Under the pieces are notes generated by a model, which saw only the letters and a program-made list of their open reading frames with translations, had not been told where the DNA came from and searched no databases. Below, one piece after another: positions 2,209 to 55,084 of a stretch of DNA of 64,000 bases. Both the position numbers and the translations under genes were made by a program. Origin of the DNA: an uncultured Planctomycetaceae bacterium (GTDB lineage Bacteria > Planctomycetota > Planctomycetia > Isosphaerales > Isosphaeraceae); NCBI GenBank assembly GCA_963833985.1, contig CAWIAD010000001.1:960001-1024000 (forward strand). Direction: 5' to 3'. Each line of letters opens with the position of its first letter. Within the stretch, counting starts at the first letter, position 1.

Positions 2209-3231
2209 TTGCTGATGCCCCTCAGCCTGGAAACGGCCGAGTATGAGTTCCTCGTGAGCCCGCTATCGTCCCGCCAGGAGATCCCCGCCGAACCGCCCTC
2301 GAGTGCGGTCAAGGTGCACTTCGGAGCCGTCTCCGACCCCGGCCGGGTCCGGTCGCGAAACGAGGATCACTACATGGTGGCCCGGGTGCGCCGGACCCTG
2401 AACGTGCTGGCCCATAACTTGCCCAAGGAAGAAATGCCCGATTTCCTGGGAGAGGACGGCTACGCCATGGTGGTCGCCGACGGCATGGGAGGCATGAACG
2501 CTGGCGACGTCGCCAGCATGCTGGCCATCAGCACCGGGGTCAAGCTCGCCGACAAGTCGGTGAAGTGGGGCTTCAAGATCAACGAGAAGGAAGCCCGTGA
2601 GCTGCTCGCGCGCATGGGTGCGTACTTCAAGGAGATCGATCGGCGGATCACCCGCAAGAGCGAGAGCGACCGCAGGCTCTTCGGCATGGGGACGACCTTG
2701 ACGCTTGCCTACAGCGTCGGCATCCACCTGTTCCTCATCCACGTCGGGGACTCGCGCGCCTACCTCTTTCGCCAGGGCCAGCTCGAGCAGTTGACTCGCG
2801 ACCATACCGTTGCCCAGGCTCTGGCCGACGCGGGCGACATCAAGCAGCAGGACGTGCGCAAACACCAGCGGCGGAATACCCTGACCAATTACCTGGGCGG
2901 CCACTCCGGCAAGGTCAAGGCCGACGTGCGCTGGCTCCAGCTCGAGGACGGCGACCGGGTCATTCTGTGCAGCGACGGCCTCAGCGACATGGTCGAGGAT
3001 CCGGACATCACCGCATGCCTCCGCGTCCATCCCGAGGCCGATGCCGCCTCCCTGGCCTTGACCCGGCGTGCCCTGGAAAACGGCGGCAAGGACAACGTCA
3101 CGGTGGTGGTGGCCAATTACTCGATCCCGGAACCGTCCCTGTCGCCTCCCCCGGCCTCGGAAACCGCCGAGTACTCAGATCAAAGGCGGATCGACTCCAC
3201 CACCGACTTCCCACGACCCGAGGGGCTGTAG
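2209..3231 (+). CDS. PP2C/PPM-family Ser/Thr protein phosphatase
   Basis: RSRNED, VADGMGG, HVGDSRAY, LCSDGL and GGKDNVTV motifs. Confidence 0.93.
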   Translation: MLMPLSLETAEYEFLVSPLSSRQEIPAEPPSSAVKVHFGAVSDPGRVRSRNEDHYMVARVRRTLNVLAHNLPKEEMPDFLGEDGYAMVVADGMGGMNAGDVASMLAISTGVKLADKSVKWGFKINEKEARELLARMGAYFKEIDRRITRKSESDRRLFGMGTTLTLAYSVGIHLFLIHVGDSRAYLFRQGQLEQLTRDHTVAQALADAGDIKQQDVRKHQRRNTLTNYLGGHSGKVKADVRWLQLEDGDRVILCSDGLSDMVEDPDITACLRVHPEADAASLALTRRALENGGKDNVTVVVANYSIPEPSLSPPPASETAEYSDQRRIDSTTDFPRPEGL

Positions 3232-3721
3232 GAGCCCCTACGCGTCCTCGAGGACGAAGCAGACCGGATATCTCGGTTCCAGTTGGTGCTGTGCATGCGG
3301 ATTCGTCTGGGAAGACAGGGGCCACGAGCAGGGCCAGGTGACCCGGCCAGGGCTTCTCGCAGGAGTCGCGAGTAATCCCTTGCAATGGCAGCGATGTCTG
3401 CTTAGTCTCGGATAGCATCCAGTACTGGTGTCGCTGTTCGGCTCGGTCCCTGGGTGTGATCGGGGACGGTAGAGGCCAGTTGGCTGTTGCGGTCTGGCTC
3501 CCGAGGGCAATTCGCTGATGACGACAGAACGAGTTCTGCGCAGCACGGCAATGAAATGCTCTGCATCCCCATTTCACGGTTTTTCTGGTCATGGTTCGAG
3601 TGCGCAGCGGATTGAGTGCCGGACGCCGGAGCAGTGGGGTGCCGGTTGGACTTCAGAGTTCGCACCGGTCCACGAACGAATTCATTACGGCCCGCAAGTG
3701 ACCACTTCCGGAGGCACGACA

Positions 3722-3970
3722 GTGGCCATCGACAAGGAAAAACTGAACCAGATTCGGCGCGAGGCAGAGAAGATCAAGGAGGCAGGATCGGCCGTGGCCC
3801 AGAACATGTTGACGCTCTGGGCCGCGCAGCTCGATATAGCCCTTGCCATTGAGGACGAAGAAACGATCAAGCGAATCATCTCGCAGCCGACACTGAGTCC
3901 TGCTTTCTATGACAACCACGGCTGCGACTGCCGTCCACTCCCAAACGGAGCGGGTTCGCAGTGTTGGTGA
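3722..3970 (+). CDS. Putative RiPP precursor peptide (82 aa)
   Basis: GGAGG RBS 7 nt before GTG at 3722, in frame with ORF 3518..3970. Charged helical leader followed by C-terminal PAFYDNHGCDCRPLPNGAGSQCW. Lies directly upstream of a radical SAM/SPASM gene. Confidence 0.7.
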   Translation: MAIDKEKLNQIRREAEKIKEAGSAVAQNMLTLWAAQLDIALAIEDEETIKRIISQPTLSPAFYDNHGCDCRPLPNGAGSQCW

Positions 3971-4221
3971 GAAGGCTTGCCCGCTGAATGCCCTTTTTCG
4001 ATGTTTGACATCCCTCACCCGTTGTGTCAACTCTTCGGGGCGCAGCGGGATGCGGAACGAACCAAGGATTCCTCCAGCGGCCAGCATCTCCACTCACATC
4101 AAGTCGACCATTCACCTGGCCCGAGGATGCGCGCTCCCACATTCTCCACGGTGGGCCTTCTCGCTTTCGGTACTGGGACCCGATTCGATCTCTCAGGAAT
4201 GAGTCGTCGGAGGATCGCGTC

Positions 4222-5580
4222 ATGGGCTCGCAAGAAGGTTGGGTGCTTTCGCGCTTTAACTTGTGGACGAGCGCGACGGATGGAGGGCTGTTGATCTACA
4301 ACAGTCTTACCGGTGCTCTGCTGCAATTACGGAATGCCGAGGCTGAGATTGTCGCCGATTTGAAGGAACACAATGGCCTTGTCGTCGAGCCAAGCGGTGT
4401 TCTCGCTGTCTTGATAACGCAGGGAATTCTTGTCCCAAGCACGTGCGACGAACTTCGCCGCGCCAGGTTGCTGCACGAATCGCGCTTCCACCAGCGCGAT
4501 CAGCTCCACCTGATCCTCATGCCAACGGAGCAGTGCAATTTCCGTTGCGTGTACTGTTATGAAGACTTCAAGCTAGGCCGTATGTCACCGGGAGTCATTG
4601 ATTCGATTGTCAATCTCGTGCGAAGGAGAGCCGTCGATCTTCGTTGCTTTTCGGTGAGTTGGTTTGGCGGCGAACCGCTCATTGCCGCCGACATTGTCGA
4701 GAGCTTGTCAAACCGCCTGATCGCGATTTGCTCCGAGGCAGGCGTCGAATACTCGGCGAGCATGACCACGAACGGGTACCTGTTGAATCCTGAGCGGGCA
4801 GAGATGTGTCGCTCCGCGCGGATCTCCAAGTTCCAGATCACGCTCGACGGCGTTCCGGAATCGCACAACCGGCAGAGGCTGCTTGCAGGCGGCGGAGACA
4901 CTTTTGACACCATCCTTTCCAACCTTCGCCTGCTCCGTGATCGCACTGATGAATTTCGCGTCAGAGTCCGAGTCAACTTCGCTCCGAATGGGATACGGCA
5001 TATGCCCACGTTCTTGAGCTCGCTTGCCGACGACTTCGGTGGGGACCCCCGTTTCCACGTCTTTTTTCGGCCGGTTGGTCGATGGGGGGGTGAACATGAC
5101 CACAATCTTTCGATCTGCGACCGATCATCGGGCGAGAACCACGAGATCGAGTTTACCGAGCTTGCAGCGAACGCCGGCTTCCCTCTGGAAGCCCTGCGCG
5201 AGGCGATGAAGCCGTTCGGCAGCACCTGCTATGCCGCCAACCCGAATTCTTTCGTCATCGGATCAGATGGGAGCGTCTACAAGTGCACGGTCGCTTTCCG
5301 GGACCCTCGCAACCGCATCGGTCAGATTGCGCTCGATGGATCGCTCAATATTGACGAGAGCCTTCATTCTCTCTGGATCTCGTCGGGTGAAGAGGTCGAT
5401 CAGGGCTGCCAGCAATGCGCTTTCAGGCCTGCCTGTCAAGGCAACCACTGTCCCCTGAACAGGCTCATCAGCAACGGTGAGAAGACCTGCCCCAGCATCA
5501 AGACACACATTGACGCTTACCTTCCTGTCGTGGCCTCCGCCACCCTCCGGTCCCTTCCTATCGTCAGCGTGGGTGGCTAG
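4222..5580 (+). CDS. Radical SAM/SPASM domain protein, probable peptide maturase (452 aa)
   Basis: GGAGGA RBS before ATG 4222. CNFRCVYC (CxxxCxxC), WFGGEP, TTNGYLL, QITLDG. Seven-Cys SPASM region (C-x18-C...CQQC-x5-C-x4-C-x12-C). The ~90-aa N-terminal extension (SRFN...IYNSLTG) is RRE/PqqD-like in position. Confidence 0.92.
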   Translation: MGSQEGWVLSRFNLWTSATDGGLLIYNSLTGALLQLRNAEAEIVADLKEHNGLVVEPSGVLAVLITQGILVPSTCDELRRARLLHESRFHQRDQLHLILMPTEQCNFRCVYCYEDFKLGRMSPGVIDSIVNLVRRRAVDLRCFSVSWFGGEPLIAADIVESLSNRLIAICSEAGVEYSASMTTNGYLLNPERAEMCRSARISKFQITLDGVPESHNRQRLLAGGGDTFDTILSNLRLLRDRTDEFRVRVRVNFAPNGIRHMPTFLSSLADDFGGDPRFHVFFRPVGRWGGEHDHNLSICDRSSGENHEIEFTELAANAGFPLEALREAMKPFGSTCYAANPNSFVIGSDGSVYKCTVAFRDPRNRIGQIALDGSLNIDESLHSLWISSGEEVDQGCQQCAFRPACQGNHCPLNRLISNGEKTCPSIKTHIDAYLPVVASATLRSLPIVSVGG

Positions 5581-5863
5581 ATTCCACAGATGCATCCCGA
5601 AGGTCGGCAACGCGGCTCATGGCGTTTCTGTCTGGAGGACCTCGCCTGACAAGCTGCTTCACTCAGGCCTTCCCCTCGCCCGCGGAACTACACATTCGGC
5701 CCAAATCAGCAGCTCCATCGAAGACAGGCCTTCGGAAGAAACGACCACGCTCTTGCCCGGCCAACGCGCGGTGCCGAAACGCCTCGCTTCAATGCATGTT
5801 ACAAGTCTGCCGCAACCTACCTGACCCCTGCTTCCAAGCCAGTCCACCATCGAGGCTCGACCT

Positions 5864-7929
5864 ATGCTCGCAAGACGGCTCGCAGAGGCCCTGGGAGACG
5901 TGGCGGAAGCGGCCGGGATCCGGGACGACGGAACGGAGGTGGCATACGAGTCGGAGCAACTGTTGAGCGAACCGCTCGCCTGGTTTCTCTGCCATCCGAA
6001 CTGGCCATCGGGCTTGGCATCCGAAAATGTCCCCATCGAACTATCGATATCCATGGGAGGCGACGGTACGCCCTGGCTCAGGTATTCGGTCGACTGTGCT
6101 GATCATCGCATGGGCCTCGGCGGCAACTGGCCGCGGTACCTGCGTGAAGCCACTCGTCTTGCGTCTGGGGTTGGTGTCCCACCTTCCGTTGTATGGCAGC
6201 TTCTGGCAAGTGTCCTGGACGGTTCGCCGCCGCTCGATCGATCGCGGCTCTACCATGGAGTCGGGTACGCCGGAGGTGGCGCGAAGAGAGTCTCACTTTA
6301 CTTCAGTACGGCGTGGCTCACATATCCCAACTTCAGAGAGCGATTTCCAGACCTCGTCGAACCTGTAGGTCAGGCAATTGACCGCTGGGGTAGTCCCAGG
6401 CCCCTTTGTTTCGATGGCCTCGCCTATGACCTCACGGGTCAAGAGCCGGCTCATCGAACCAAGTTGTACCAGTGGCTTGGTTGTGATGTGCCTTCGCCTC
6501 TGAATGAACTTGCCGGACGACATCCCGACCTGGTGGCTGCTGGTGTTCTATTCAACCATTATTTCTCATCGAACCCGCCTCATACCCTCAGCAGATCCCT
6601 CCTGCTGCAATGGAGTCTCCTGCCGCCCCGTATGTCCTGCAACCAAAAACTCTTCTTTGAATGCACTCGATGGGGCTGGGGCAATCCGCGGGCATACCGC
6701 GAACTACTTTCGTTACTGAACAACCGCTTCGGAATGAATCTCGGACCTCTCTACGCGATGATCGCGGTCTTCGCGAATTATAAGATCTTGATCAGACCAA
6801 CTTTCCTCGCCATCGGCCCTGGACCAGCCCATCCCTCAATCACTTTCTACTTCCGTCCCGTTCTTGCAGAACCGCTTCGGTCGGCTTCGACGTCGATGGT
6901 CATGGGTCCCATGCCAGACTCTTTCGCCAGGAATCCCGTCGGGTTGCTCGAACACATGACAAGGACCGCCACTGATTTCTTGCTCAGGGAGAAAAGAAGC
7001 GATGACTACTGGATGGATTTCGCACTACCTATTGGCCCATCGGATGCGTGGGTGACTGCATACATAACTGCCATCCTGTCCAGGATGAGCGGCCTGCACG
7101 TCGAACTCGATCGACCCGCCCGGATTCTGAGAACCTGGTTTCGACCCAATCTCGGTTGGGGTGAAAACGGCAACGCTCCCACTGACGCGGACTCGACGGC
7201 ACTCGCCCTGCTGACATTGAAACGGCTGGACCGGCCAATTCCCGATGGGGCTAGTGACATTCTCATGCGATACCGTCTGCACAAAGGAGGTTATTGTCAT
7301 GATTTAAATTCGGATGTGGACGATGAGCACGGGACTGGCGCGCCCGAAATCACCGGCATCGCTCTGCTCGCCATGCTTGAAATCGGCCTGGCAGACTCGG
7401 CTGTCATCAATGGCTGTGTCGAAAATGTGCTCGCTTTACAGCACCGGAGGGCGGGTGGAACGCATTCTGGTGGAAGGATGACCTCTTCGCAACTTGCCGG
7501 ATCTTGCATGCGCTGAATGCCTATTTGCGGTCCCACCAAGCACGAAGTGCGTGGCTTGAAACGCCGGAATACTCTCTTCTGCAATCCGCGAGCCGCGCAG
7601 TGGAAACGGCTCGCCTCGCTTGTATCTCCGCACAGGCCGTGTCTGATGAACCGCTGAGTCTCGGTCTCTGGCTCAGCAGTTGGGTGGCCGCCGGCGGGAG
7701 CCCTCATTACCACAGCATCGGTCGAATGCTCAGTCGTTTGAACTCAGAACAGCAAACCGACGGACGTTGGCTTGCGTCACCAAGTCGGCGAATCGCGGGA
7801 ACTATGCTCAACCGTCCCTGGGCAAGGTCGGACTCAGGCCGATTGTATCTCGATACGCGCTGTCTTGTGACGACAGCGACAGTGCTGGACGGCCTGTGGT
7901 CGCTTCTTCTGGCCCTGAAAGAGGCATGA
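5864..7929 (+). CDS. Fusion of DMATS/ABBA-type aromatic prenyltransferase-like domain and class II terpene cyclase-like (prenyltransferase/squalene oxidase repeat) domain; 1-nt frameshift at ~7444
   Basis: N-domain WPSGLASENVPIELS...PWLRYSVD resembles the DMATS 'S...PxExS...RY' motif. C-domain has YWMDF...SDAWVTAY, GWG...DADSTA and QW-like repeats. Adding one C at ~7444 gives LQHPEGGWNAFWWKDDLFAT and joins ORFs 5864..7516 and 7504..7929 into ~688 aa. Confidence 0.72.
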
Positions 7930-8568
7930 GCCAATCAATCAAGTATAGGATTCGGCCAAGCTCGCATACCCAATCCCCGGCGATTCTCTTAAGTTCGCGC
8001 GGCAGCCTGGTCGAGCCCACTGCCCGATTTGTTCGTCGCTGAATGCGGGCGGCCGATCCGGCCATTTCGCGAAGTGCGAAAGTGACAGCCGTTGTCATCC
8101 GTCACGGGGGCGTTCCTGGCTGCCGGCTTTGCAAGCGGGTCGTCGCCGATTACCTCGCTGCCGCAGAAGTCATGTCCCGGCTGCATCGCTTCGCGTGAAC
8201 CGAGTCCGATTCCTTCAGCCAACCTTGCCCCGTGCGCTCCGCGCTGGTCAAGCCTCTTGGTGCTGCGGCTCGGCAAGCTCCTTACACGCCATCGATGGCG
8301 TTTTGGCAGCGAATCTCATGAAGAGATGAGCCAGAGGCGTGCGCAGCAGCACCAGGAGCTGGGCCGTCGGCGGGAACGGTGGCGTGAGCCTGGAAGGATT
8401 GCCGCGGTGCCTGTCTCCGCCAGCCGGAAAATGAAACGGCCCTGCTGCTCCTGGTATTATTCTTGCGGCGCTGATCCGCCTTGTGCGAGGTTCTGGGGGC
8501 ACAGGGCCGGCGTCCTGGAGCCGGTTCCCGCCTCGCTCGAAACCACATCCCTTCTGGAGAGGCCGATC

Positions 8569-9045
8569 ATGCAACCCGATATCGCCGAAACTCTCGTTGA
8601 GGACTTCGAACGCGGCCGTCTGACGCGCCGTCAGCTTGCGTCAAGGCTCATGGGCCTGGGAGCAGCCCTGGCTGCACTGCCTGACGAGGTCCGGGCCGAG
8701 CCGATTGAAGGCACCATGTTCGAGGCGACCGGACTGAACCACGTCGCCCTGAACGTCCGCAGCGTGTCCCGCTCTCGCGAGTTCTACATCAAGCACCTCG
8801 GGTTGAAGGTCATCCGCGACGGTGGCGAGGACAACTGTTTTCTGGGCGCTGGGAGTGACTTCTGCTTGACGCTCTTCAAGGGCGACCAGCCAGGTTTGAA
8901 CCATTACTGCTACACCATCAAGAGCTACAGCGTCGATCAGGCCGAGGAGAAGCTGAAGGCGGCCGGACTGAAGCCGCGACGCGAAGGAAATCGAATCTAC
9001 TTCCCGGACCCTGACGGCATCGAGGTCCAGGTCGCCGGAGCGTGA
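8569..9045 (+). CDS. VOC/glyoxalase family protein with twin-arginine-like leader
   Basis: GGAGAGG RBS before ATG 8569; LTRRQL leader; LNHVALNV...SREFY...LGL, LNHYC and IYFPDPDGIEVQV motifs. Confidence 0.85.
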   Translation: MQPDIAETLVEDFERGRLTRRQLASRLMGLGAALAALPDEVRAEPIEGTMFEATGLNHVALNVRSVSRSREFYIKHLGLKVIRDGGEDNCFLGAGSDFCLTLFKGDQPGLNHYCYTIKSYSVDQAEEKLKAAGLKPRREGNRIYFPDPDGIEVQVAGA

Positions 9046-14483: not shown

Positions 14484-15997
14484 TCACGCGTGCGGGCGTT
14501 CCTTGTGGTAATGGCCAATGACTGTCTCGACAGCCCGGCGCCATCGTTCCATGGCGCGCGACCGCCACGCGTAATCACGGGCGGGCGCGAATGTTTGCTC
14601 GCCCGATTCCAGCAGTTCGAGCACCCTGGCCCGACCGCTCCAGAGCCCCACACCAAGCCCGGCCAGCACCGCAGCCCCCAGAGCGGTCGACTCGCTTTGC
14701 GGGCTGCGCCGGATCGGCCGGCCGAGGACGTCGGCCTGGAATTGCAGGAAGGCGTCCGACCGGGCCATCCCGCCGTCCACCCGCAGTTCGGCGAGCACGC
14801 CGCCGAGGTCGTCCTGCACGGCCTCGATCAGGTCGGCGATCTGGAAGGCGACTCCTTCCAGTGTGGCCCGCGCGATATCGGCCACGGTGCTGCCCCGGGT
14901 GAGCCCGAAGAGGGTTCCGCGCGCCTCGGGCTTCCAGTGCGGGGCCCCCAGGCCAGTCAGGGCCGGCACGAAGGTGACCTCGCAATCGGGGTGGCCTTCC
15001 AGGGCCAGCGCGCCGATCTCGGGCGCCGCGCCGATCGCCTTGAGCCCGTCACGAAACCACTGCACCGCCGCGCCGGCAATGAACACACTTCCTTCCAGGG
15101 CGAACTGCGCCGGCTCGCCCACCAGCGAGGCGGCACGCGTGGAGATGAGCCCGCTGCTGGAACGGGCGACGTGAGCGCCTGTATGGGCCAGCAGGAACGC
15201 ACCGGTGCCATACGTGCACTTGGCCTGCCCCGGGTCCAGGCAGCCCTGGCCCACAAGGGAAGCCTGCTGGTCGCCGGCCACCCCGGTGATGGGAATGCCA
15301 TCGGGAAGATAATCCAGGCCGGAGGTCACGCCAAAATCCCCCGCGCTGGGGCGGATCGCCGCCAATATTCCGCGTGGCACCTCGAATAGGTCACAGAGTG
15401 ATTCAGCGTACTGGCCGGTTTCCAGCTCCATCAGAAGGGTGCGTGACGCGTTCGTGACATCGGTCAGGTGCTGCCGGCCGCCGGTGAGATGCCAGATGAT
15501 CAGGGTATCAACGGTCCCCGCGGCCAGTTCGCCCGCGTCCGCGCACGGCGCGCCCCGGGTACGTGATCGAGAATCCAGGCCATCTTGGTCGCCGAGAAAT
15601 AAGGGTCGAGGACCAGGCCGGTGGTCTGGGAGATCCATGCCGCCTGGCCGTGCAGGCGACCGCAGGCGGCTGCCGTTCTGCGATCTTGCCAGACCAGCGC
15701 GGGTGCGATTGGACGGCCGGTCGCACGCTCCCAGAGGATGGTCGTTTCACGCTGATTGGTCAGTCCGATGGCTGCAATCCGGTCCGCTCTCACACCCGCG
15801 TCAAGCAAGGCGAGCGTCACCTGAGACCCGACCGATGCAATCAGGGCGTCGGCGTCATGTTCGACCCAGCCGGATCGCGGGTAAGAGGGCAAGACCTCCG
15901 CCTGCCCTTGACCGGCCACCTGGAGTCTTGCATCGTACACAACCGCCCGCGTGCTGGTGGTTCCCTGGTCGATCACCAGGAGATGGTCGCGTGCCAT
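14484..15997 (-). CDS. glpK: Glycerol kinase, 1-nt frameshift at ~15548
   Basis: N-part (in ORF 15500..16429): MARDHLLVIDQGTTSTRA, GWVEHD, TNQRET, WQDRR, DPYFSATK. C-part (ORF 14484..15638): GTVDT, TDVTNASRT, AGDQQA, KCTYGTG, ALEG, LRVDGG. One missing base joins them. Confidence 0.93.
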
Positions 15998-16066
15998 GTG
16001 CTTGCTGATCCCTCTGCTTGAGACTGGCAGATCCGTCGAGGATACTCCTTCCCACTGAGGCAAACC

Positions 16067-16519
16067 ATGGACAAGACGACGATCTACGAATGCCTGGGCT
16101 TCGTGCTCGGGTTCCTGGGCATCGGCATCGCCTATTACGCCATCCACCTGGGCATCAGGCTGGAGCGCACGAAGCGCGAGCTCGAGCACAAGGAGCGAAT
16201 GCGGGCGCTGGAGCTCGGCCGCAAGATGCCCGGCGAGGGACCCTGGCTCTCGCCCTTGAAGGCGGGGGTGCTGGTTGCGGCCGTCGTACCGATTGGCGTT
16301 TCGGCCATGGCCTACCTGTCCAGCCTTGCGGTCGGCTTCCAGGATGGCATCTGGCAGGTCGCGGGGATCGTGAGTTGTTTCGCGGTCGTCTGCGGCACCG
16401 TGCTCACGGGCCACGCCTTCTCGCGGCAATCGGAGAGTTTATTCACAAACCAGGTTCCCGTGCACAAGGAGCCGGTCGAGGAAGATCTCTACGACGTCGT
16501 CTCGGCGCGGCAGAACTGA
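16067..16519 (+). CDS. Small membrane protein, DUF6249-like
   Basis: N-terminal TM segment, RELEHKERMRALELG, two further TM segments. Confidence 0.7.
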   Translation: MDKTTIYECLGFVLGFLGIGIAYYAIHLGIRLERTKRELEHKERMRALELGRKMPGEGPWLSPLKAGVLVAAVVPIGVSAMAYLSSLAVGFQDGIWQVAGIVSCFAVVCGTVLTGHAFSRQSESLFTNQVPVHKEPVEEDLYDVVSARQN

Positions 16520-25500: not shown

Positions 25501-28500
25501 ACGGCGGCCGAGCCGGCCCTTTCCGGCAACATCTGGGACACGAACGTCTTCACGGGAAAGGTGAACCAGTTCAGCCCCAGCGGCGGCCTGCTCACGACAA
25601 CCAGCGCCTCGCTGTTCCAGCCCGGCCTGGCGGTCCTGGGCGACGTGCCGGGCGAGGCACCTCTGCCGCCCCCGCAGAACCCGGTCTACTCGATCAACCT
25701 CACTCAGGGCGAGAGCGCCTCGTTCATCATCCAGAGCCTGAACAGCTCGAACGTGTCGCTCACGCTCTATGATGACAGCGGCGACACGCTGGCCCTGAGC
25801 AAAGCCGGCGCCACCAACTACGCCCAGGGCATCAACAACTTCGTGGCATCGGCCACCGGCACGTACTACGTGCAAGTCACCGGCGATCCGGCGCGCAGTT
25901 CAACCTGGTGGTCACCCGCAATTCCGATTTCATGACCCAGAAGAACAACAGCCTCGCGCTGGCCCAGCAGCTTCTCGGCACCGGAGCCGTTCTGGGGGCG
26001 ATCACACCGACGAGCGCCGCGATCTACACGCTGGATAACAACCTCTACAGCCCGCCGTTCCCGATCTGGCAAACCAACCCGGACACTGGTGCGTTCATCC
26101 CCCCGTCGATCCCGGCGCCCTCGACCACGCCGAACAACCCGTTCGGCCTGAACATGGCCTATGACGGTACATATATCTATTACAACAACGGTTCCGGAGT
26201 TGGCACCAACACGATCTACAAGATCGACGCCGCGACCGGGCAGGTTGTCGCCCAGGCGACACCGCCCAGCACGGTGCCACTTCTCGGCGGCATCGCCTAC
26301 CTGAATGGTGAGCTCTACGGCATCGCGGCGTTCAACTCGGACCTTTACCTCTTCGATCCGAGCACGCTCGCATTCCAGAGCACGATCACGACGGGCATCG
26401 GCTCGGGTTATGCGGTCGAGGGCCTGGCCGGCAATTCCGACAACGGCATGCTTTATGCCATCGCCCAGGGCGCGCCAGGCACGTTCTTCGAGCTCAACCC
26501 CTCCACAGGCGCGGTGGTCGCCACGGCGCCGGACAACAACCAGGGGCTGAACGAGCAGGACATGGCCTACCAGAATGGCCAGCTCTTCGTGTCCGACACC
26601 AACGGCCTGGGATCCTCCGGCGGCACGAACGTGATCGACGTCTACGACGCCACCACGTTCGCGTTCCTGCGGCGAATGCCCGTGGCAACGCAGGGCTTCG
26701 TTTCGGGCCTGGCGGGCGACGGCCTGGGCGTGGCACCTTCACCGGTATCTTACTACAGCGTGAACGCCAACGCCGGCGACAACCTGCACTTCGCGACCTC
26801 GACGCCGGCGGGTGGCCCGAACGAGTTCGTGAATAACCTCTACCCCGAGCTGCTGCTCTATGACCCCAACGGTAACCTGGTCGCCGTCGCTGCGGGCAAT
26901 GGGTCCGACGGCCGGAACTCGGTGATCGACTTCACCGTGCCTCAGGGCGACGCCGGCCAGTGGATCATCGAGGTTGCCCAGTCCCCGAACACATCCGCAC
27001 CGACCTTTGGCGAGTACGGCCTGACGGCCACGGGCGCCACCGGCACCCTGGCTCCGTTCACCGTCACAGCCGCGACTCCGGCCCCGGGCGCCCTCATCCA
27101 GCCGCCGTCGACGGTCACCATCAGCTTCAATCAGTCGGTCTTCATCCCCTCACTCACCGCCGGCGAGCTGGAAGTCAACGGCGTGGCGGCGACCGGCTTC
27201 ACCGTGGACAACGCCACGACAGTGACCTGGGCCATTCCCTCCAGCGCCTACGGCACGGGCGTGGACCTGGCCAACGTCGTGACGCTGGGTGCCGATGCCT
27301 CGGGCAATCAGGTCACGGACATCAGCGGCCAGACGCTCATCCCGTTCAGCTATACCTTCTTCACGACGAACGTCGCGCCCACGGTCGTGAGCTCGTCGGT
27401 TGACGGCCAGGTCTTCTCGCCGGCCCCGGCCAATATCACCGACGTCGTCACCTTCAGCCAGCCGATGAACACGACGTTCACGACCGACGCCAGCTTCCAG
27501 CTCTATGGCCAGTACCGCAACCAGGTGATCGCGGCCGCCTCCTTCAGCTGGGACCCGACTGGCACCATCCTGACGATCAATTTCGCCAAGGTTCCCGACG
27601 ATGTCTACACGCTGACCCTCTTCGCCAGCGGCTTCGAGAACGTGGTTGGAATTCCCCTGGCCAGCAACTACGTGTCCAACTTCACCGTCACGCTGGGCAC
27701 CGCGGCGTTCCCGACGCCGCTCACGTCCATCCCGCCGCTTGGCGACCTGATCTACACCGGCAGTGACAGCCACGTCCTGGCCACGTCCACCGACGTGAAC
27801 AGCCTGACGCTGGCCCTGAACGCGGGCGAGTCGCTCACCCTGATCGGTACGCCCTCGGCGGCGAACCAGCAACTGGTGATCACGGTCCTCAATCCAGGCG
27901 GCACGACAGTCGCCACCGCGACGGCCCTGGCCCCGGGTCAGAACGTCGTCATCGAGAACGCGCCGGCCGCAACCACTGGCACCTACACGATCCAGATCAG
28001 CGATTCTAGCGGTAACCTGGGCCTCTACTCGATCCAGGCCTACCTCAATAGCTACGTCAAGCAGGGCACGTCGAACGACACGATCGGCACGGCCCAGAAC
28101 ATCAACCCCAGCTCCTATACGCTGAGCTCCGGCTCGAACCGGCTCGGCCTGGTCGGCAGCCTCCCGGCAGGAACCCTGCAACCGGGCGATGCCTTCGTGG
28201 TCTCGCAGGGGACCTATTTCACCGGCACGTCGAATATCCTCGTGATCAACGAAGCCGGACAGGTGATCAACACCATCCCGATCAACCTGAACTACTCGTA
28301 CACGGTCGGCGAGGTGAAGCTCAGCCCGTACAACAACGAGCTCTACGTGGGACTGACCACCAGCAATCCGTTCGTCGTGCCGACGCAGGAGATCACCGGC
28401 GAGCTGCTCGAGCTCGACCCGGTCACCGGCAAGCTGCTGAACACCATCAACCTCCCCGCTGACCCGTGGATCAACGGGAATCCCAACTTCTACTACTTCT

Positions 28501-31500
28501 ATCCCTTCGCGTTCGACGCCGCTACCGACGGCACGTTCTGGATCTCCCAGCCCGACAGCAACAACATCATCCATGTGGACGGCTCGGGCAACGTGCTCGC
28601 GAGCTACTCGACGGGGAGCATCCTGCCGTACAGTCCCACGGTCCGGCCTGACGGCGAAGTCTACTTCACGAGCAACACCCCCAACGCGATCTTCCTCCTT
28701 GATCCGAACACGGGCAACATTTCCCAGTTCGCCAGCCAGCCGAACCCGCAGTTCAGTAACCTGGCCGGCACCGGCGGGCTCTGGTCGGCCGACTTCTACA
28801 ACGGTGCTCAGCGGTTCGACAGCTCGGGCAACCTGCTCCAGTCCGTCGGCTATTACGGCTCGACGCAGGCCCAGAACGATCCATCAGGAAACGTCTGGGT
28901 CTCCAACGACTACTACCAGGCCGCGTTCCTGTTTGACAGCAATGGCAACCAGCTCCAGTCCGTGACGGTCCCGAACGCGGAGGGCCTCGCGGTCTGGGGT
29001 GTCGATAACCCCAACCCGCCGGCGCAGGACACCCAGGACTACTACAGCTTCTCGCTGACCGCCGGCCAGAGCGCGACCCTGGTGGCCAAGAGCCTGAACA
29101 GCCTGGGTGTCCAGATCAGCCTGGTCGACGGCAACGGCAACGTGCTGGCCACTGGCGTCAGTGGGGCGAGCAACGTCGACTCGTCGATCTCCAACTTCGT
29201 GGCACCGACGACGGGGACTTACTACGTCAAGGTCACCGGGGCTCCGGGCGTTCAGTACAGCGTGGCGGTTACCCGCGGCGCCACGTTCGAGCTCAAGCCC
29301 AATGGCACGCAGCAGACGGCCCAGCCGATCACCGGCAACGGAGTACTGGGCGCGGCCACGCCAGGCGGCACTCTGGTGATCGGCAACACCTTCCAGGGCA
29401 TCGACTTCGCGTCGCCGAACAATCCCTGCGGCTGCTTGCCGCCGGACACCAACGCGGCCGTCGGGCCCACGCAGGTGATCGAAACGGTCAACGAGGAGAT
29501 CCGTGTCTGGGACAAGACAACCGGTGCCACCGTGCTGGACGAGTCGCTGGCCTCGTTCTTTGGCCAGGGAAGCTTCGGCGACGTGTACGTCTTGTACGAC
29601 AACACGGCCGACCGCTTCTACGTCACGGCCTTCGACGGATCGGCCACGGGATTGCTGCTGGCCATCTCGAAGGACTCCAACGCCCTGGACGGCTGGCTGC
29701 CCACCTACAACCTGAATGTCAATGGCGGAGCCGGCACTCCCGACTATCCCAAGCCGGGCTTCAACAAGGACGCCATCTTCGTTGACTACAACGACTTCAG
29801 CGGCTCTGGCGATGCCAAGATCGCGACCATCAACAAGGCCGCGGCTTTCGCCGGCACGCTCCAGATGTACATCTCGACGCCGGCACCCGAGTTCCGGGCG
29901 ATGACCCCGGCGCAGATGAATGGCGACACGACCGGCGGCACGGAGTGGTTCTTCTCGACCGACGGGAACGACGTCAGCGGCAACACGATGCGTGTCACCG
30001 CCATGACCAACTACTTCAGCACCACCCCGACCTACACTTACTACTCGATCCCGGTCACTCCGTACCAGGCCCCGGCGGTTGCTGACCAGCCCGGCGGCTC
30101 CTGGACCACGTTCCCCAACACCACGACCTACAGCGTTCAGTACCTCAACGGCATGCTGGTGACGGCCATGGCGTCGGGCACGGCCGCCGATGGATACACC
30201 TATCCCAAGGGCCTCTACTACGAGGTGAACGTCGCCAGCGGCACGCCGGTGCTGGTGAACCAGGGTGTGATCGATCCCGGGCCCGGCGTGTCGGTCCAGA
30301 TGCCATCGGTTGCAATGGACCGCAACGGCAACCTGGGCTTTACCTGGATGGAAGCCTCGAGCACCGAATACCTCTCGATGTGGATCGGCAGCCTCGACAA
30401 CCAGGGCCACTTCAGCTCCTACGACGTCTCGCCGGGCGGAGGGTTCTTCTACCAGAACTCCCGCATCGGCGATTACAGCACAGTCGCTCTCGACCCCACC
30501 AGCAACACCTTCTGGGCGGCCAACGAGTACATCGGATCCGATGGCGCCAGCGATATCTGGCGGACCTACATCGCCTCGTTCTCACTCCCGCCGGCGGTGG
30601 ACAACAACTGGTACTCGGTCGACGTTCAGTCCGGCCAGGCGCTGTCGCTCCAGACCTCGACCCCATCCGATCAGGGCGGTCAGTTCATCAACACCGCCTC
30701 GCTCGAGATCGAGCTCTACGACACCTTCGGCAACCTGGTCGCCGTCGGTACCAAGCTGGCCGACGGCCGCAACGAGGCGCTCTTCTACAACGCCCCGGTC
30801 ACCGGCCAGTACTTTGTGCACCTGTACAACGACCCGGGCACCTCGGGCGAGTACTTCCTGTCGGCGACCACCAAGGCGTACGCCTCGGGTGGCATCTCCG
30901 GCCAGGTCTACAACGACCTGAGCGGCAGCGGATCCCAGACGCCTGCCGACCCCGGTCTGGATCACTGGGAGATCAACGTCTACACCGCGAGTAACCAGTA
31001 CGTCGCCTCGCAGCTCACGTACGGCGGAGGCTACTTCGACATCGCGGGCCTGGCGCCTGGAAGGTACAAGGTCAGCGAGGTGCTCATGAACGGCTGGACC
31101 GAAACCCAGCCGAGCACGCTGAACAAGACCTACACCGTCACGGTGGCGGCGAATCAGACCACCAGTGGTCTGCTCTTCGGCAACTTCCAGAACGTGACGA
31201 TCGCCGGCACGGTCTTCAACGACCTGACGGGCATCGGCAGCTTCCTGCCCGGCGACCCCGGCCTCTCCGGCTGGACCGTCAAGCTGATCAGCAGCGCCGG
31301 CAAGACCGTGGCCACCACGACCTCCGACGCGAACGGCAACTACACGTTCGCCAACGTCGGTCCGGCGCGTTCACGGTCGCGGAAACGCTCAAGAATGGCT
31401 GGATTCAGACCGTGCCGGCAGCGCCGGGCACGTACAGCGTCACCACCTCGAGCGGCACGAACACCAGCGGCCTGCTGTTCGGCAACTTCCAGCTCGTGAC

Positions 31501-33238
31501 CTTCGCCGGCACGGTGTACAACGACCTCAACGGCAACGGAGTACTCGATTCAGGTGAGAAGGGACTGGGTGGCTGGAAGATCAACCTCATCAACGATGTG
31601 ACGGGTGCCACGGTCGCGACCAAGACCAGCAACGCCAGCGGGGCCTTCTCGTTCACCGGTATCCTCCCTGGTCTGTACTCGGTGCAGGAGATCAACCAGA
31701 GCGGCTGGTACCAGACCCAGCCAGTCAATCCTCCGGGTACCTACACACTCCAGGCCATCAGCAGCGCAACCCAGAGCTCGCTCAACTTCGGTAACTTCAA
31801 GCTGGTGACCGTGAGCGGCGAGGTGTACAACGACCTGAACGGCAACGGCAACCTCAATCCGGGCGAGCCTGGCCTGTCGGGCTGGACGGTGATGCTGCTT
31901 GATGCCTCCGGCAACACGGTGGCCACCACCACCAGCGACGCCAAGGGTGACTACACCTTCGCCAGCCTTTTCCCGGGCGCGTTCACCATCGAGGAAGTAC
32001 TGCAAACCGGCTGGACCCAGACGCAGCCGGTCAACCCTGGGTACTACCAGTTCTCCACGAAGAGTGGCACGAACCTCACGGGGCTGAACTTCGGTAACTA
32101 TCTTGCCGCCTCGATCACCGTTTCCGGAAACGTCTACAACGACCTGAACGGCAACGGGATCTCGAATCCCGGCGAGCCCGGTCTCTCCGGCTGGACCGTC
32201 AACCTTGAGGATAGCAGTGGCAATGTGCTCGCTTCGAGCGTGACGGACGCCAACGGCAACTACACGTTCAGCGGACTGGGAATCGGCTCGTTCCAGGTGG
32301 CCGAGGTCGTGCAGACCAACTGGGTTCAGACCCAGCCCTCCTACCCGACCTCTTACTCGTTCACGACCAAGCCGGGGATGAACCTGAACGGGCTTACCTT
32401 CGGCGACTACTTCGCGAACGCGTTTTCGCCCACGTCGGTCATCGACAATGGCCAGAGCGGCTATACCGAGACCGGCACCTGGAAGACCGCCACCGGCGGC
32501 TTCAACGGCAACAACCGGACCGCATCGGTCGTGCATTCCGGCAAGGGAACGGCCAAGGCCACCTGGGCCTTCACCGTCACGCCCGGCGCCACGTACGCGG
32601 TCTACCTGACCTTCGCGGGCAAGAGCAATTACGCTCAGTCCGCACCGTTTACGGTCTACGACGGCACCACGTCGCTGGGGACCATGTTCATAGACGAGTC
32701 CATCCTGGTCACCCAGGCCCAGGGCGGGTTCACTGAGGGCAGCTACGGCGGTGTGGGCTGGATCGACATCGGCAGCTACACTCCTAGCGGCAGCTCGCTG
32801 AACGTGGTCCTGAGCAACCTGATCGCCAGCGGCGGAGGCAGCCTGGTGGATGCCGACGGCGTGGCGATCGTTCAGACCAGCACCGGTGCCGGCCCCAACC
32901 TCGCGTCGCTGCCGCCAGGCTCCAGCAGCAGCAACGGTACCTCCGCCGGTCCCGTCGGCATGGCCGCACTCGACCTCAGCACGGGCTCGACGCCGACTGG
33001 CACCAGCGGCAAGAGCACCACTCCGGTCGTCATTCTCAGCGGTGTGTCGCAGGCAGCACCCTTGACTGTGGTCTACTCCCAGGGCACGCAGCCGGTCGTG
33101 AACCAGGCGGCTCCCACCGTGGTCGACGCGGTGCTCGGGCTGACAAACGGCGACGGCGGCACCAGCGGCTCGACGTCCACCGGCAACATCGCTGCACTGG
33201 CGAAGGCGCTCCTGTCCGGTAAGAAGGCCTCCGCGTGA
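19567..33238 (+). CDS. Giant (~4,560 aa) multidomain extracellular/adhesin-like protein; two 1-nt frameshifts (~25890, ~31364)
   Basis: Three consecutive ORFs (2122, 1863, 608 aa) join by adding one G each: GDPGAQFNLVVTRN and NVGPGAFTVAETLKNGW. Contains LESLEERTLLS motif, two PPDT...VETVN domains, Big_5-like Ig repeats, PPC-like domains (D.Y.F...AG), beta-propeller segments, SdrD B-like repeats (GxVYNDLNGNG...GEPGLSGWTV), a golvesin-like domain (VIDNG...ADGVAI) and a VDAVL tail. Confidence 0.88.
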
Positions 33239-53095: not shown

Positions 53096-53315
53096 GGGTC
53101 CACCCGACCACGCCGTAGGCCGTGATGCTGAGGCACTCGACAGAGCACCTTCGATGTTCGATCCGCTTGCCGTTATCCACACGATACCGGCAAGCGGATC
53201 TGGCTTACCGGCCCGGTGGACTTGACGGATCCGCCGGCGCCGGGTGATGCTCCAGGAGACGCGGAAAGCTGGGGCCGCAGTGTCGCCGGCCGTTCCGCGC
53301 TCTCAGGACCGCACG

Positions 53316-55084
53316 ATGGAAACCGCACGCATTGCCCAGATCCTCGACGAGATGGGCACGATCCTCGAGATCCAGGGCGAAAACCCGTTTCGCTGCCGGG
53401 CCTACCACAATGCGGCCCAGGTGCTCACCAACCTTCCTGCCGACCTCTCCGAGATGATCGCCGATGGCAGCCTGGCCGAGGTGCAGGGCATCGGCGAGAC
53501 GATGCACGCCAAGATCGTGCAACTCGCAACCACCGGCCATCTGCCAGCCTTCGACAAGCTTCGCGCCACGCTGCCGCCGGGGGTTCTCGCCCTACTGAAA
53601 GTGCCTGGCCTCGGTCCCAAGAAGATCAAGGCCCTGCATGAAGCGCTGAAGATCGAGAGCCTGGCCGACCTCCGTGCCGCCGCCGAGGCGGGGTCGATTG
53701 CCCGGATCAAGGGGTTCGGCGCCAGGACCGAGGCCAACATCCTGGAAGGAATCGCCTTTCTGGAAAAGACCGGCGGGCGCATCTTGCAGAACGAAGCGCT
53801 GATGCTGGTCGCACCGATCTTCGAAGCGGTGCGCCGCCACCCGCAGGTGATTCGCGCCGAGGTCTGCGGCAGCCTGCGGAGACGGGCCGAGACGATCGGC
53901 GATCTCGACATCCTCTTCAGCGCCGGCGACCCTGCGCCGGTGCTGAAGGAGTTCGTCTCTCTGCCCCAGGTGGCGCGTGTGCTGGCGCACGGCCCGACCA
54001 AGGCCAGCGTCCTCTTGCCCGCGTTCCAGTCCGATCAATACGTGCAGTGCGACCTGCGGGGCGTGGAGGACCGGCAGTTTCCCTTCGCCCTGCATTACTT
54101 CACCGGATCGAAGGCGCACAATATCGCCATCCGCAAGCGGGCCCTGGCCCGGGGGCTGTCGCTCAACGAGTACGCTCTGAGCGGCAACGGCACCGAGGTG
54201 TCCTGCCTGACCGAAGCCGACCTGTTCCGGGCACTCGGCCTGGCCGAGATTCCGCCGGAGCTCCGTGAGGACGCAGGCGAGATCGAGGCCGCGGAACACG
54301 GCAAGCTTCCCAGGCTCGTCGCCGCGGATGACCTGACCGGGACCTTCCATTGCCACACGGACTGGAGCGACGGTGACGCGACCCTGGAGCAGATGGCCGC
54401 AGGCGCCGCGCAGCCGGGCTCACTTACCTGGGCATCGCCGATCACTCCCGCTCGCTGCGCATGGCCGGCGGGCTGTCCGTCGAGCGGGTGCGCGAGCAGT
54501 GGTCCCGCATCGACGCGCTGAACGCGCAGTTCGGCGAATCTTTCCGGCTCTTCAAGGGAACCGAGTGCGACATCCTGGCCGACGGCTCGCTGGATTTTCC
54601 GGACGACCTCCTTGACGGCTTCGACTACGTCGTCGCGAGTATCCACTCCCACTTCCGGATGTCGCGCGAGGAGATGACCGCGCGGGTGATCCGCGCGGTC
54701 TCACACCCGCGCGTCACCATGCTCGGCCATCCCACCGGCCGGCTCCTGCTCTCACGCGCCAGCTACGCGGTCGATCTTGACGCCGTGATCGAAGCGGCCG
54801 CCCGAGCCGGCACGATGATTGAAATCAACGCGAATCCCCATCGCCTGGACCTCGACGCCGTGCACTGCCGCCGTGCCTGCCAGAAGGGCGTGCCCCTGGT
54901 CATCAATCCCGACGCGCATTCGGTTTCCGGATTGCATGACCTGACATACGGCGTGAGCGTGGCGCGGCGTGCCTGGCTAGAGGCAGGCAATTTGCTGAAC
55001 ACCGCAGCATTACCGGAAGTGGCGAGGCGGTTGGAGCAAATGCGGCGCCGCGGGGAGCCTGCACACGACCCTGTGCACCGCTGA
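53316..55084 (+). CDS. polX: DNA polymerase X / PHP 3'-5' exonuclease, 1-nt frameshift at ~54406
   Basis: GENPFR..AY, GSLRR..ETIGDLDIL, YFTGSKAHN, IPPELRE; PHP motifs HCHT.WSDG, then (after adding one C) GLTYLGIADHS, GTECDI, HPTGRLL, EINANP.RLD, INPDAH. Confidence 0.93.

Follow-up and report, generated by a model that had tools for sequence, protein, structure and literature searches.

A candidate radical SAM-modified peptide family encoded beside a prenyltransferase-cyclase gene in a planctomycete genome

Known peptide maturation systems and the locus

In Methanococcus voltae, CrpC, a ranthisynthase of the TIGR04463 family, installs ranthionine links in CrpA, a large Cys-rich repeat protein. 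The enzyme combines an RRE (residues 1-92), a radical SAM domain and a seven-Cys SPASM domain, and its cluster Cys are C104/108/111, C333/352/403 and C390/393/399/422 (PMC13692751). Streptococcal NxxcB provides a precedent for a β-thioether on the Asn of an N-x-x-C motif, in the peptide NxxcA (PMC9389541). What defines triceptides, represented by the systems of ChlB, YhhB and HtkB, is an aromatic-x-x motif (PMC11499958). For the prenylation of Trp in an already macrocyclised peptide there are two precedents: NctPC, which adds a geranylgeranyl chain to Trp and cyclises it there (PMC13290415), and MppC, which geranylates one Trp of a lanthipeptide and requires its Nif11-like leader (PMC12715784). 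Finally, the substrates that DMATS-type enzymes take include Trp, Tyr and indoles (PMC7973389).

The window, a stretch of 64,000 nucleotides from the genome of an uncultured Planctomycetaceae bacterium, contains three co-oriented genes, encoding in order a putative precursor peptide, a radical SAM/SPASM maturase and an aromatic prenyltransferase followed by a terpene cyclase domain. Like CrpC, the window radical SAM enzyme appears to combine RRE, radical SAM and seven-Cys SPASM parts with near-identical Cys spacing, but it falls below the TIGR04463 cut-off. In place of a large repeat protein, its substrate would be a precursor of 82 aa whose core has two Cys and, unlike in CrpA, the acceptor would precede the Cys in the chain. 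The N-x-x-C register of NxxcA is also the most constant feature of the window family, whereas leader and gene context differ; the likeness is one of register. With the triceptides, the family shares an aromatic-x-Asp/Asn triad, yet its universal core residue is Cys rather than an aromatic one, and the window enzyme is set apart from triceptide maturases by its HMM scores, its residues near the catalytic site and an N-terminal extension of about 90 residues.

The comparison extends to the third gene. The substrate of NctPC is a proteusin, and the bacterial DMATS-type indole prenyltransferases (4yl7, PriB, 6-DMATS and CymD) act on small molecules. The latter are related to the window prenyltransferase by profile homology and share its P-x-E-x-S motif; unlike them, the window enzyme is encoded in a ribosomal-peptide cluster. 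NctPC, as far as its published description goes, has the same two-domain architecture as the window gene and its orthologue in locus L025. MppC acts on a lanthipeptide, whereas in the window the ring-former is a radical SAM enzyme and the leader is unrelated.

By the criteria that we applied, namely profile and motif comparisons, the window system appears to lie outside TIGR04463, the triceptides, and the Nif11, NHLP and double-Gly precursors. The precursor family and its radical SAM subclade are covered by no Pfam or NCBIfam model, and the family was not found described in the literature covered; Hubrich et al. 2024 and a 2026 review, both outside that coverage, may list such clusters. With confidence that is evenly balanced, we read the locus as encoding a ranthipeptide-like precursor with NctPC-like prenyl/cyclase tailoring.

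The precursor, its leader and its family

The putative precursor gene is an 82-codon open frame that runs from GTG to TGA at positions 3722..3970 (+), with a Shine-Dalgarno-like GGAGG (3710..3714, +) 7 nt 5' of the GTG. In the alignment, the start codon of the orthologous precursor P0004 is the equivalent of this GTG; a longer frame starting at 3518 was rejected because homology begins at 3722. The translation contains every stretch that an earlier note on this DNA had quoted, namely the leader segments, F62-Y63-D64-N65, C68-D69-C70, C81 and W82. Homology searches placed the peptide in a family of 48 members in which a conserved leader is joined to a variable core and encoded beside a maturase. 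On this comparative evidence, we regard the frame as a real gene and a RiPP precursor.

The leader probably spans residues 1 to about 60 (3722..3901, +). In an AlphaFold2 model (36-row alignment, mean pLDDT 71), a long helix (residues 5-42) is followed by a short one (46-54). Its conserved positions are A21, L32-W33, D38 and A40, with the pattern L-W-x4-D-x-A; W33 is kept in 47/48 members and is replaced by Thr in L080. The leader had been described as amphipathic, which held for residues 4-21 (hydrophobic moment 1.41 vs 0.70 when shuffled, p = 0.028) but not for residues 24-42 (p = 0.68) or 43-54 (p = 0.28). The reported lack of a double-Gly site was borne out: Gly-Gly is absent, GA/GS pairs occur only at residues 22, 76 and 78, so that no GG, GA or GS lies between residues 24 and 75, and none of the 40 window ORFs scanned matched a C39 transporter. 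Similarly, the leader had been said to resemble neither Nif11 nor NHLP precursors, and 0/36 aligned members matched these or other RiPP leader models in Pfam and NCBIfam (E <= 0.1). Foldseek returned no match to the leader model at E <= 0.001. A word-index search with the single window peptide found only the peptide itself, the precursor had no usable match in the ESM Atlas, and neither a precursor nor the fusion enzyme matched anything in the plasmids searched.

The family was assembled by phmmer, a profile search, locus scans and genome searches. Against 1.84 billion representatives, phmmer returned 16 proteins at E <= 0.001, 15 of them genuine; a 495-aa repeat protein (P0007) was a spurious match and was dropped. 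The profile search found 21 proteins, of which 16 were new. Core counts given below refer to 47 sequences, which fall into 24 clusters when grouped at 60% identity, with P0033 excluded (family leader but unrelated tail) and the 48th member, in L080, which was found later, reported apart; because members were gathered with profiles that include the core, the collection itself may affect these counts.

A related RRE-type radical SAM/SPASM gene adjoins the precursor in 13 of the 14 loci, and in the 14th (L010) the contig stops about 130 nt past the precursor. L008 and L009 carry an identical precursor and hence are not independent. Where measured, the adjacent enzymes are 40-77% identical to that of the window. 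As a control, 0/50 loci around more distant radical SAM enzymes had a precursor or prenyltransferase match (best E 0.37 and 0.86). Judged by gene neighbourhood, the family is shown to be fixedly paired with one subclade of radical SAM/SPASM enzymes. With its leader unmatched by known models and this gene adjoining, the earlier proposal of a RiPP precursor with an uncatalogued leader stands.

The closest orthologous cluster is L025 (genome G831, same family), with precursor P0004 and a 77% identical radical SAM enzyme. The pairing of P0004 with P0069 in L025 was confirmed, and that of P0135 with P0032 is contradicted by the tree; other such pairings are not relied on here. The family is rare and patchy, at one or two genomes per 120-400 sampled. 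Within the phylum of the window genome, 1/401 genomes matched (the window genome itself), as did 2/121 in its order and 0/13 others of its genus. Elsewhere, matches were found in 2/401 genomes of the order and 1/251 of the genus of G402, in 2/251 of the family of G401 and in 1/151 of the family of G765.

Tandem precursor pairs are present at L005:9562-10336, L007:801-1556, L012, L013 and L006:9974-10585. In these pairs, the first precursor is short and lacks a terminal Trp, and the second has a Gly-rich tail (hydrophobic in L006) that ends in Trp. In the divergent locus L024 (6162-8101, -), two precursors lie downstream of the radical SAM gene; their cores contain three Cys but lack aromatic residues, and no prenyltransferase of this type was found in the genome. 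Elsewhere in the window genome lies another and larger cluster of this family (L001, G000:C2:1244045-1260000, from G000:C2:1249138 onward), which encodes a 108-aa precursor ending in Cys-Trp, a 48% identical radical SAM enzyme, a stand-alone prenyltransferase, a second radical SAM/SPASM enzyme, a B12-binding radical SAM enzyme, a PhyH dioxygenase, a UDP-sugar dehydrogenase-like fusion and other tailoring enzymes; it may be a richer pathway than the window cluster. A protein of 620-655 aa, alike by eye, recurs near L001:5459-7330(-), L006:12943-14817(+) and L005:16511-18478(-), and Pfam gave no match for the two of the three that were scanned.

Precursors that share a leader and differ in their cores, as they do in tandem in L005, L006, L007, L012, L013 and L024, are typical of RiPPs. 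Together with the varied tailoring genes, and with an S51 peptidase encoded next after the radical SAM enzyme in L006, they speak against an improbable alternative in which the peptide remains uncleaved and is not an exported natural product; it would be a small helical protein that, like QhpC or CrpA, uses its cross-linked Asp/Asn/Cys tail to bind a metal or a partner. Such a role would suit the unusually conserved leader and the lack of a double-Gly site; it would also suit the Pfam scan, which found no protease or exporter beside the three window genes. Moreover, CrpA, the substrate of a TIGR04463 enzyme, is a protein (PMC13692751).

Core motifs and the radical SAM enzyme

The core contains two widely conserved motifs. 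The first, F62-Y63-D64 (3905..3913, +), is an aromatic-x-Asp triad that may be a recognition element or a cyclophane site. The triad is present in 41/47 sequences and 22/24 clusters (in shuffled sequences, 4.5 on average and 12 at most). Its aromatic position can be Phe, Tyr or Trp, and the triad stands 1-5 residues from the first Cys. It is missing in 6/47 precursors, two of which have no aromatic residue there at all. The second motif, N65-H66-G67-C68-D69-C70 (3914..3931, +), combines [N/D]-x-x-C with C-x-C and is the likely thioether site. All 47 sequences have at least two core Cys, and C-x-C occurs in 21/24 clusters. Asn or Asp stands at -3 from one of the first two Cys in 47/47 sequences and 24/24 clusters, whereas shuffled sequences averaged 14.0 and reached 24 in 1/5000. 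The -1 position relative to a Cys is likewise Asn or Asp in 24/24 clusters; the spacing statistics being equal, we prefer the i+3 register because of its chemical precedent. The window gene is atypical in that His-Gly between Asn and Cys breaks N-C-x-C and preserves N-x-x-C. Members with F-Y-D-N-C-x-C have Asn or Asp at -3 from just one of their two Cys.

At its end, the window peptide carries C81-W82 (3962..3967, +), a terminal Cys-Trp on a Gly-rich tether, with W82 the only core Trp. A terminal Trp recurs in 24/47 sequences and 8/24 clusters and is missing in L025 and L080. The earlier note had proposed a core that unites an aromatic-x-acid triad with Cys, and this the family does conserve. 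It had framed the triad as Y-D-N, a sequence found in 26/47 members but in only 5/24 clusters (aromatic-x-Asn, 6/24), so that F-Y-D is the conserved frame instead. Among the features expected to recur in homologues, the F-Y-D type triad and two Cys did so; Y-D-N, the third Cys (10/24 clusters) and the terminal Trp did not. Within the window genome, aromatic-x-D-x(0-4)-C-x-C near a C-terminus was found at 16/58,107 short-ORF ends, and the same pattern with a terminal Trp at 3/58,107, two of these being the window gene and its paralogue.

The radical SAM/SPASM maturase (452 aa; 4222..5580, +) was recognised by Pfam Radical_SAM. A longer start at 4024 was rejected because homology begins at 4222. 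The enzyme has CxxxCxxC at 105/109/112, seven SPASM Cys (336, 355, 396, 399, 405, 410 and 423) and an extra C299. The ten cluster Cys are invariant in 80/80 homologues, and C299 is kept in 78/80; as a possible fourth ligand, it might close the open iron site of the auxiliary cluster. TIGR04463 is the best NCBIfam match (222 bits vs a cut-off of 525), five related radical SAM enzymes score 163-221 bits against it, and 6/6 family enzymes miss the cut-off. PapB follows at 111 bits, and the cyclophane models YhhB, AmcB and DynA give 52-65 bits, with YhhB at 54 against a cut-off of 445 and AmcB at 52 against 425.

Comparison with CrpC (PMC13692751) suggests an RRE-like region at the N-terminus of the window enzyme. 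The seven SPASM Cys follow the layout of CrpC, although the conserved C299 might add a fourth ligand to the auxiliary cluster, and when the supplementary sequence was compared by eye, the two enzymes shared WFGGEP, QITLDG and an extra upstream Cys. At six positions in catalytic-site proximity, taken from PMC10288494, the window enzyme reads Y/F/T/T/T/V, CteB F/F/T/S/H/Q and ChlB Y/H/Q/S (positions 1-4). Together with the HMM scores, these residues favour thioether over triceptide chemistry, short of proving it. F and T also occupy those positions in PDB 8vpo, which we take to be the cyclopropane-forming TigE. Predicted complexes of the radical SAM enzyme with the precursor scored 0.08, 0.40 and 0.31 against a mark of 0.32.

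Since the enzyme resembles CrpC and CteB and not the triceptide synthases, a Cys-to-Asn/Asp thioether is likelier than a cyclophane. Of the two chemistries named in the earlier note, the cyclophane is the weaker option, given 222 bits for TIGR04463 vs 52-65 and F/T where ChlB has H/Q. We propose that the helical leader would be bound by the RRE-like domain of the enzyme. The radical SAM centre would then probably abstract a β-H from Asn or Asp and join that residue to the Cys three residues on, while the three-Cys auxiliary cluster binds this Cys. The product would be a ranthionine, linking the N65 β-carbon to C68 in the window peptide and forming two interlocked rings in D-x-N-C-x-C members; F-Y-D would then be chiefly a recognition or register element. 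That a thioether is the main reaction is probable, because [N/D]-x-x-C is kept where indels break N-C-x-C, as in the window, and because the best-matching family includes the ranthionine-installing CrpC. Counting against our best reading of the locus are the shortfall from the TIGR04463 cut-off, proximity positions 5-6 (T and V vs H and Q in CteB), the equally constant -1 spacing, C299, and the terminal Trp in L006, which lacks the prenyltransferase.

A pure thioether model has most difficulty with the strong conservation of aromatic-x-Asp. Instead of the thioether, or besides it, the radical SAM enzyme might cross-link the F62 ring to the D64 β-carbon in a three-residue cyclophane, in which case C-x-C would form a disulfide, bind a metal or serve as a second substrate. 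We consider such a cyclophane, alone or added, unlikely but worth weighing. The triad exceeds its shuffle maximum, tolerates any of three aromatic residues, behaves as its own unit at a variable distance from the Cys, and corresponds to the aromatic-x-x by which triceptides are defined (PMC11499958); the near-universal C299 points the same way. By comparison, two Cys are found in every sequence when six lack the triad, the cyclophane-synthase models score far below TIGR04463, and the proximity residues are not those of ChlB. Furthermore, the L024 precursors have N-C-x-C and no aromatic residue, which a pure cyclophane model cannot explain. It is improbable, though conceivable, that one radical SAM enzyme reads both units, making an aromatic-to-Asp cyclophane and, next to it, an Asn/Asp-Cys thioether before a DMATS-derived prenyltransferase-cyclase builds a polycyclic terpenoid on a core Tyr or Trp, depending on the locus. 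If true, the product would combine cyclophane, ranthionine and meroterpenoid in one hybrid peptide, made from a precursor with a new type of leader.

The prenyltransferase-cyclase gene and its acceptor

The aromatic prenyltransferase that the earlier note had placed in the cluster is upheld by profile hits and alignment, which define a DMATS-type (ABBA) domain at 5864..6880 (+). All profile hits at E <= 0.05 are DMATS-type, with 4yl7 best (E 1.5e-8) and PriB, 6-DMATS and CymD also matched; Pfam Trp_DMAT scores 14-21 bits, under its cut-off of 25. P57-x-E59-x-S61, R73, R126, Y146, Y188, Y202 and Y329 are kept in 6/6 homologues. Behind it lies an MstE-like class II terpene cyclase domain with a DADST motif (6881..7929, +), which matches a prenylcyclase (E 4e-14) and MstE (E 3e-7). 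A one-base frameshift near 7443 splits the cyclase, giving ORFs 5864-7516 and 7504-7929. In a DNA alignment, the window has one base fewer there than L025, whose single intact ORF of 686 aa (L025:10698-12758) is 66% and 75% identical to the two pieces and 70% identical across the prenyltransferase domain. The fusion of ABBA prenyltransferase and MstE-like cyclase is therefore intact in L025 and frameshifted in the window. A single-sequence fold of the intact fusion (pLDDT 38) was not used.

The frameshift is probably an assembly indel rather than true decay, because a glycerol kinase gene in the window is split likewise and because both parts of the cyclase retain 66-75% identity to the unbroken gene of L025. 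A genuine break would leave a product with linear prenylation at most. The glycerol kinase-like FGGY gene (14484-16429, -) lies in two frames that cover profile positions 3-148 and 153-245, and a PolX-like gene (53244-55084) and SdrD-repeat genes (25908-33238) seem to be broken too, a pattern that points to indel errors in the assembly.

Alternatively, the cluster could be a decaying acquired island in which the frameshift is real and the radical SAM product alone, or nothing, is made. Besides the one-base deletion, this account draws on the spacers, which measure 251 and 283 nt against 48 and 68 nt in L025, on a GC content of 54-62% in 500-nt windows vs 65% genome-wide, and on the scarcity of the family in the order (2/121) and among others of the genus (0/13). 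We think it rather doubtful, since the precursor, radical SAM and prenyltransferase frames are open with conserved catalytic residues, the part behind the break remains 75% identical to the orthologue, and the window contains an unrelated housekeeping gene with a similar split. The spacers (3971-4221 and 5581-5863) are about four to five times longer than those of the orthologue and contain no significant repeat; repeat and promoter/terminator scans gave results at chance level, and Rfam had no match across 3200-8700. The flanks encode a PP2C phosphatase and a glyoxalase-fold protein, neither of which was seen beside the cluster in related loci.

A prenyltransferase gene stands behind the radical SAM gene in 8 loci (window, L001, L005, L007, L008, L011, L025 and L080), seven of them recognised by profile hit and L008 by eye from a short contig-end fragment. 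Only the window and L025 show the cyclase. No prenyltransferase match was found in the genomes of L006 and L024, and none lies adjacent in L012. On these comparisons, prenylation would be an optional tailoring step, because not every locus has the enzyme and the cyclase is missing from most. In our proposal, the DMATS-type domain would put a prenyl chain on W82, the single core Trp, and the MstE-like domain would cyclise it, a step to which we give an even chance and which is modelled on NctPC acting on a lanthipeptide (PMC13290415).

The acceptor itself may differ among loci. That the terminal Trp is the acceptor, as the earlier note proposed, is plausible for the window gene, where no other core Trp exists; as a family rule it fails, the residue being missing in 2/8 prenyltransferase loci, including the closest orthologue. 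Terminal Trp is found in 6/8 prenyltransferase loci vs 2/3 without an adjacent enzyme (Fisher p 1.0), the latter being L006 and L012. L025 and L080, which belong to different clades, lack it and have a Trp next to Asp; all 8 prenyltransferase loci thus have a core Trp, at a position that differs among them. W82 is the likeliest acceptor because both of these losses carry Trp beside Asp, and for the window peptide we put it at roughly half of the probability.

Tyr63 is a more tentative candidate. The prenyltransferase may target the Tyr (or Trp) beside the invariant Asp, with cyclisation onto the phenol and another role for the terminal Trp. Tyr or Trp within two residues of Asp separates the loci more sharply (8/8 with prenyltransferase vs 0/3 without, Fisher p 0.006), although the loci were counted by hand and the three loci without an adjacent enzyme are related early branches of one clade, so that this p overstates the case. 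The closest orthologue, with its 70% identical domain, has the Tyr and not the terminal Trp, and DMATS-type enzymes accept Trp, Tyr and indoles alike (PMC7973389). Under a Tyr model, however, the Trp near Asp that accompanies loss of the terminal Trp would be superfluous in L025, and the characterised prenyltransferase-cyclase peptide maturases in the literature examined act on Trp. Another acceptor, or none, is about as doubtful as Tyr63.

Natural variants with and without the terminal Trp, the prenyltransferase and the cyclase separate the open chemical questions. The system could reveal which cross-links a TIGR04463-like enzyme forms (Asn/Asp-Cys thioethers, cyclophanes or both) and whether a ribosomal peptide can be the substrate of a DMATS-type prenyltransferase. 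Pairing a radical SAM enzyme with a prenyl-cyclase would extend terpene-decorated RiPPs beyond the lanthipeptide examples in the literature examined.

Other observations concern the surroundings of these genes. DUF1559 and ASPIC/UnbV are among the gene content of the window and suggest a planctomycete host. Just upstream of the cluster in L025 (L025:748-8688), ORFs in several frames match Tc toxin complex TcA domains in Pfam. More distant radical SAM relatives (L014, L015 and L016; 38-42% identity) include two on Deinococcus plasmids beside an LLM-class oxidoreductase, with annotated lantibiotic dehydratases in L015, and one from Nostoc that lies between lanthipeptide precursors and an NHLP exporter.
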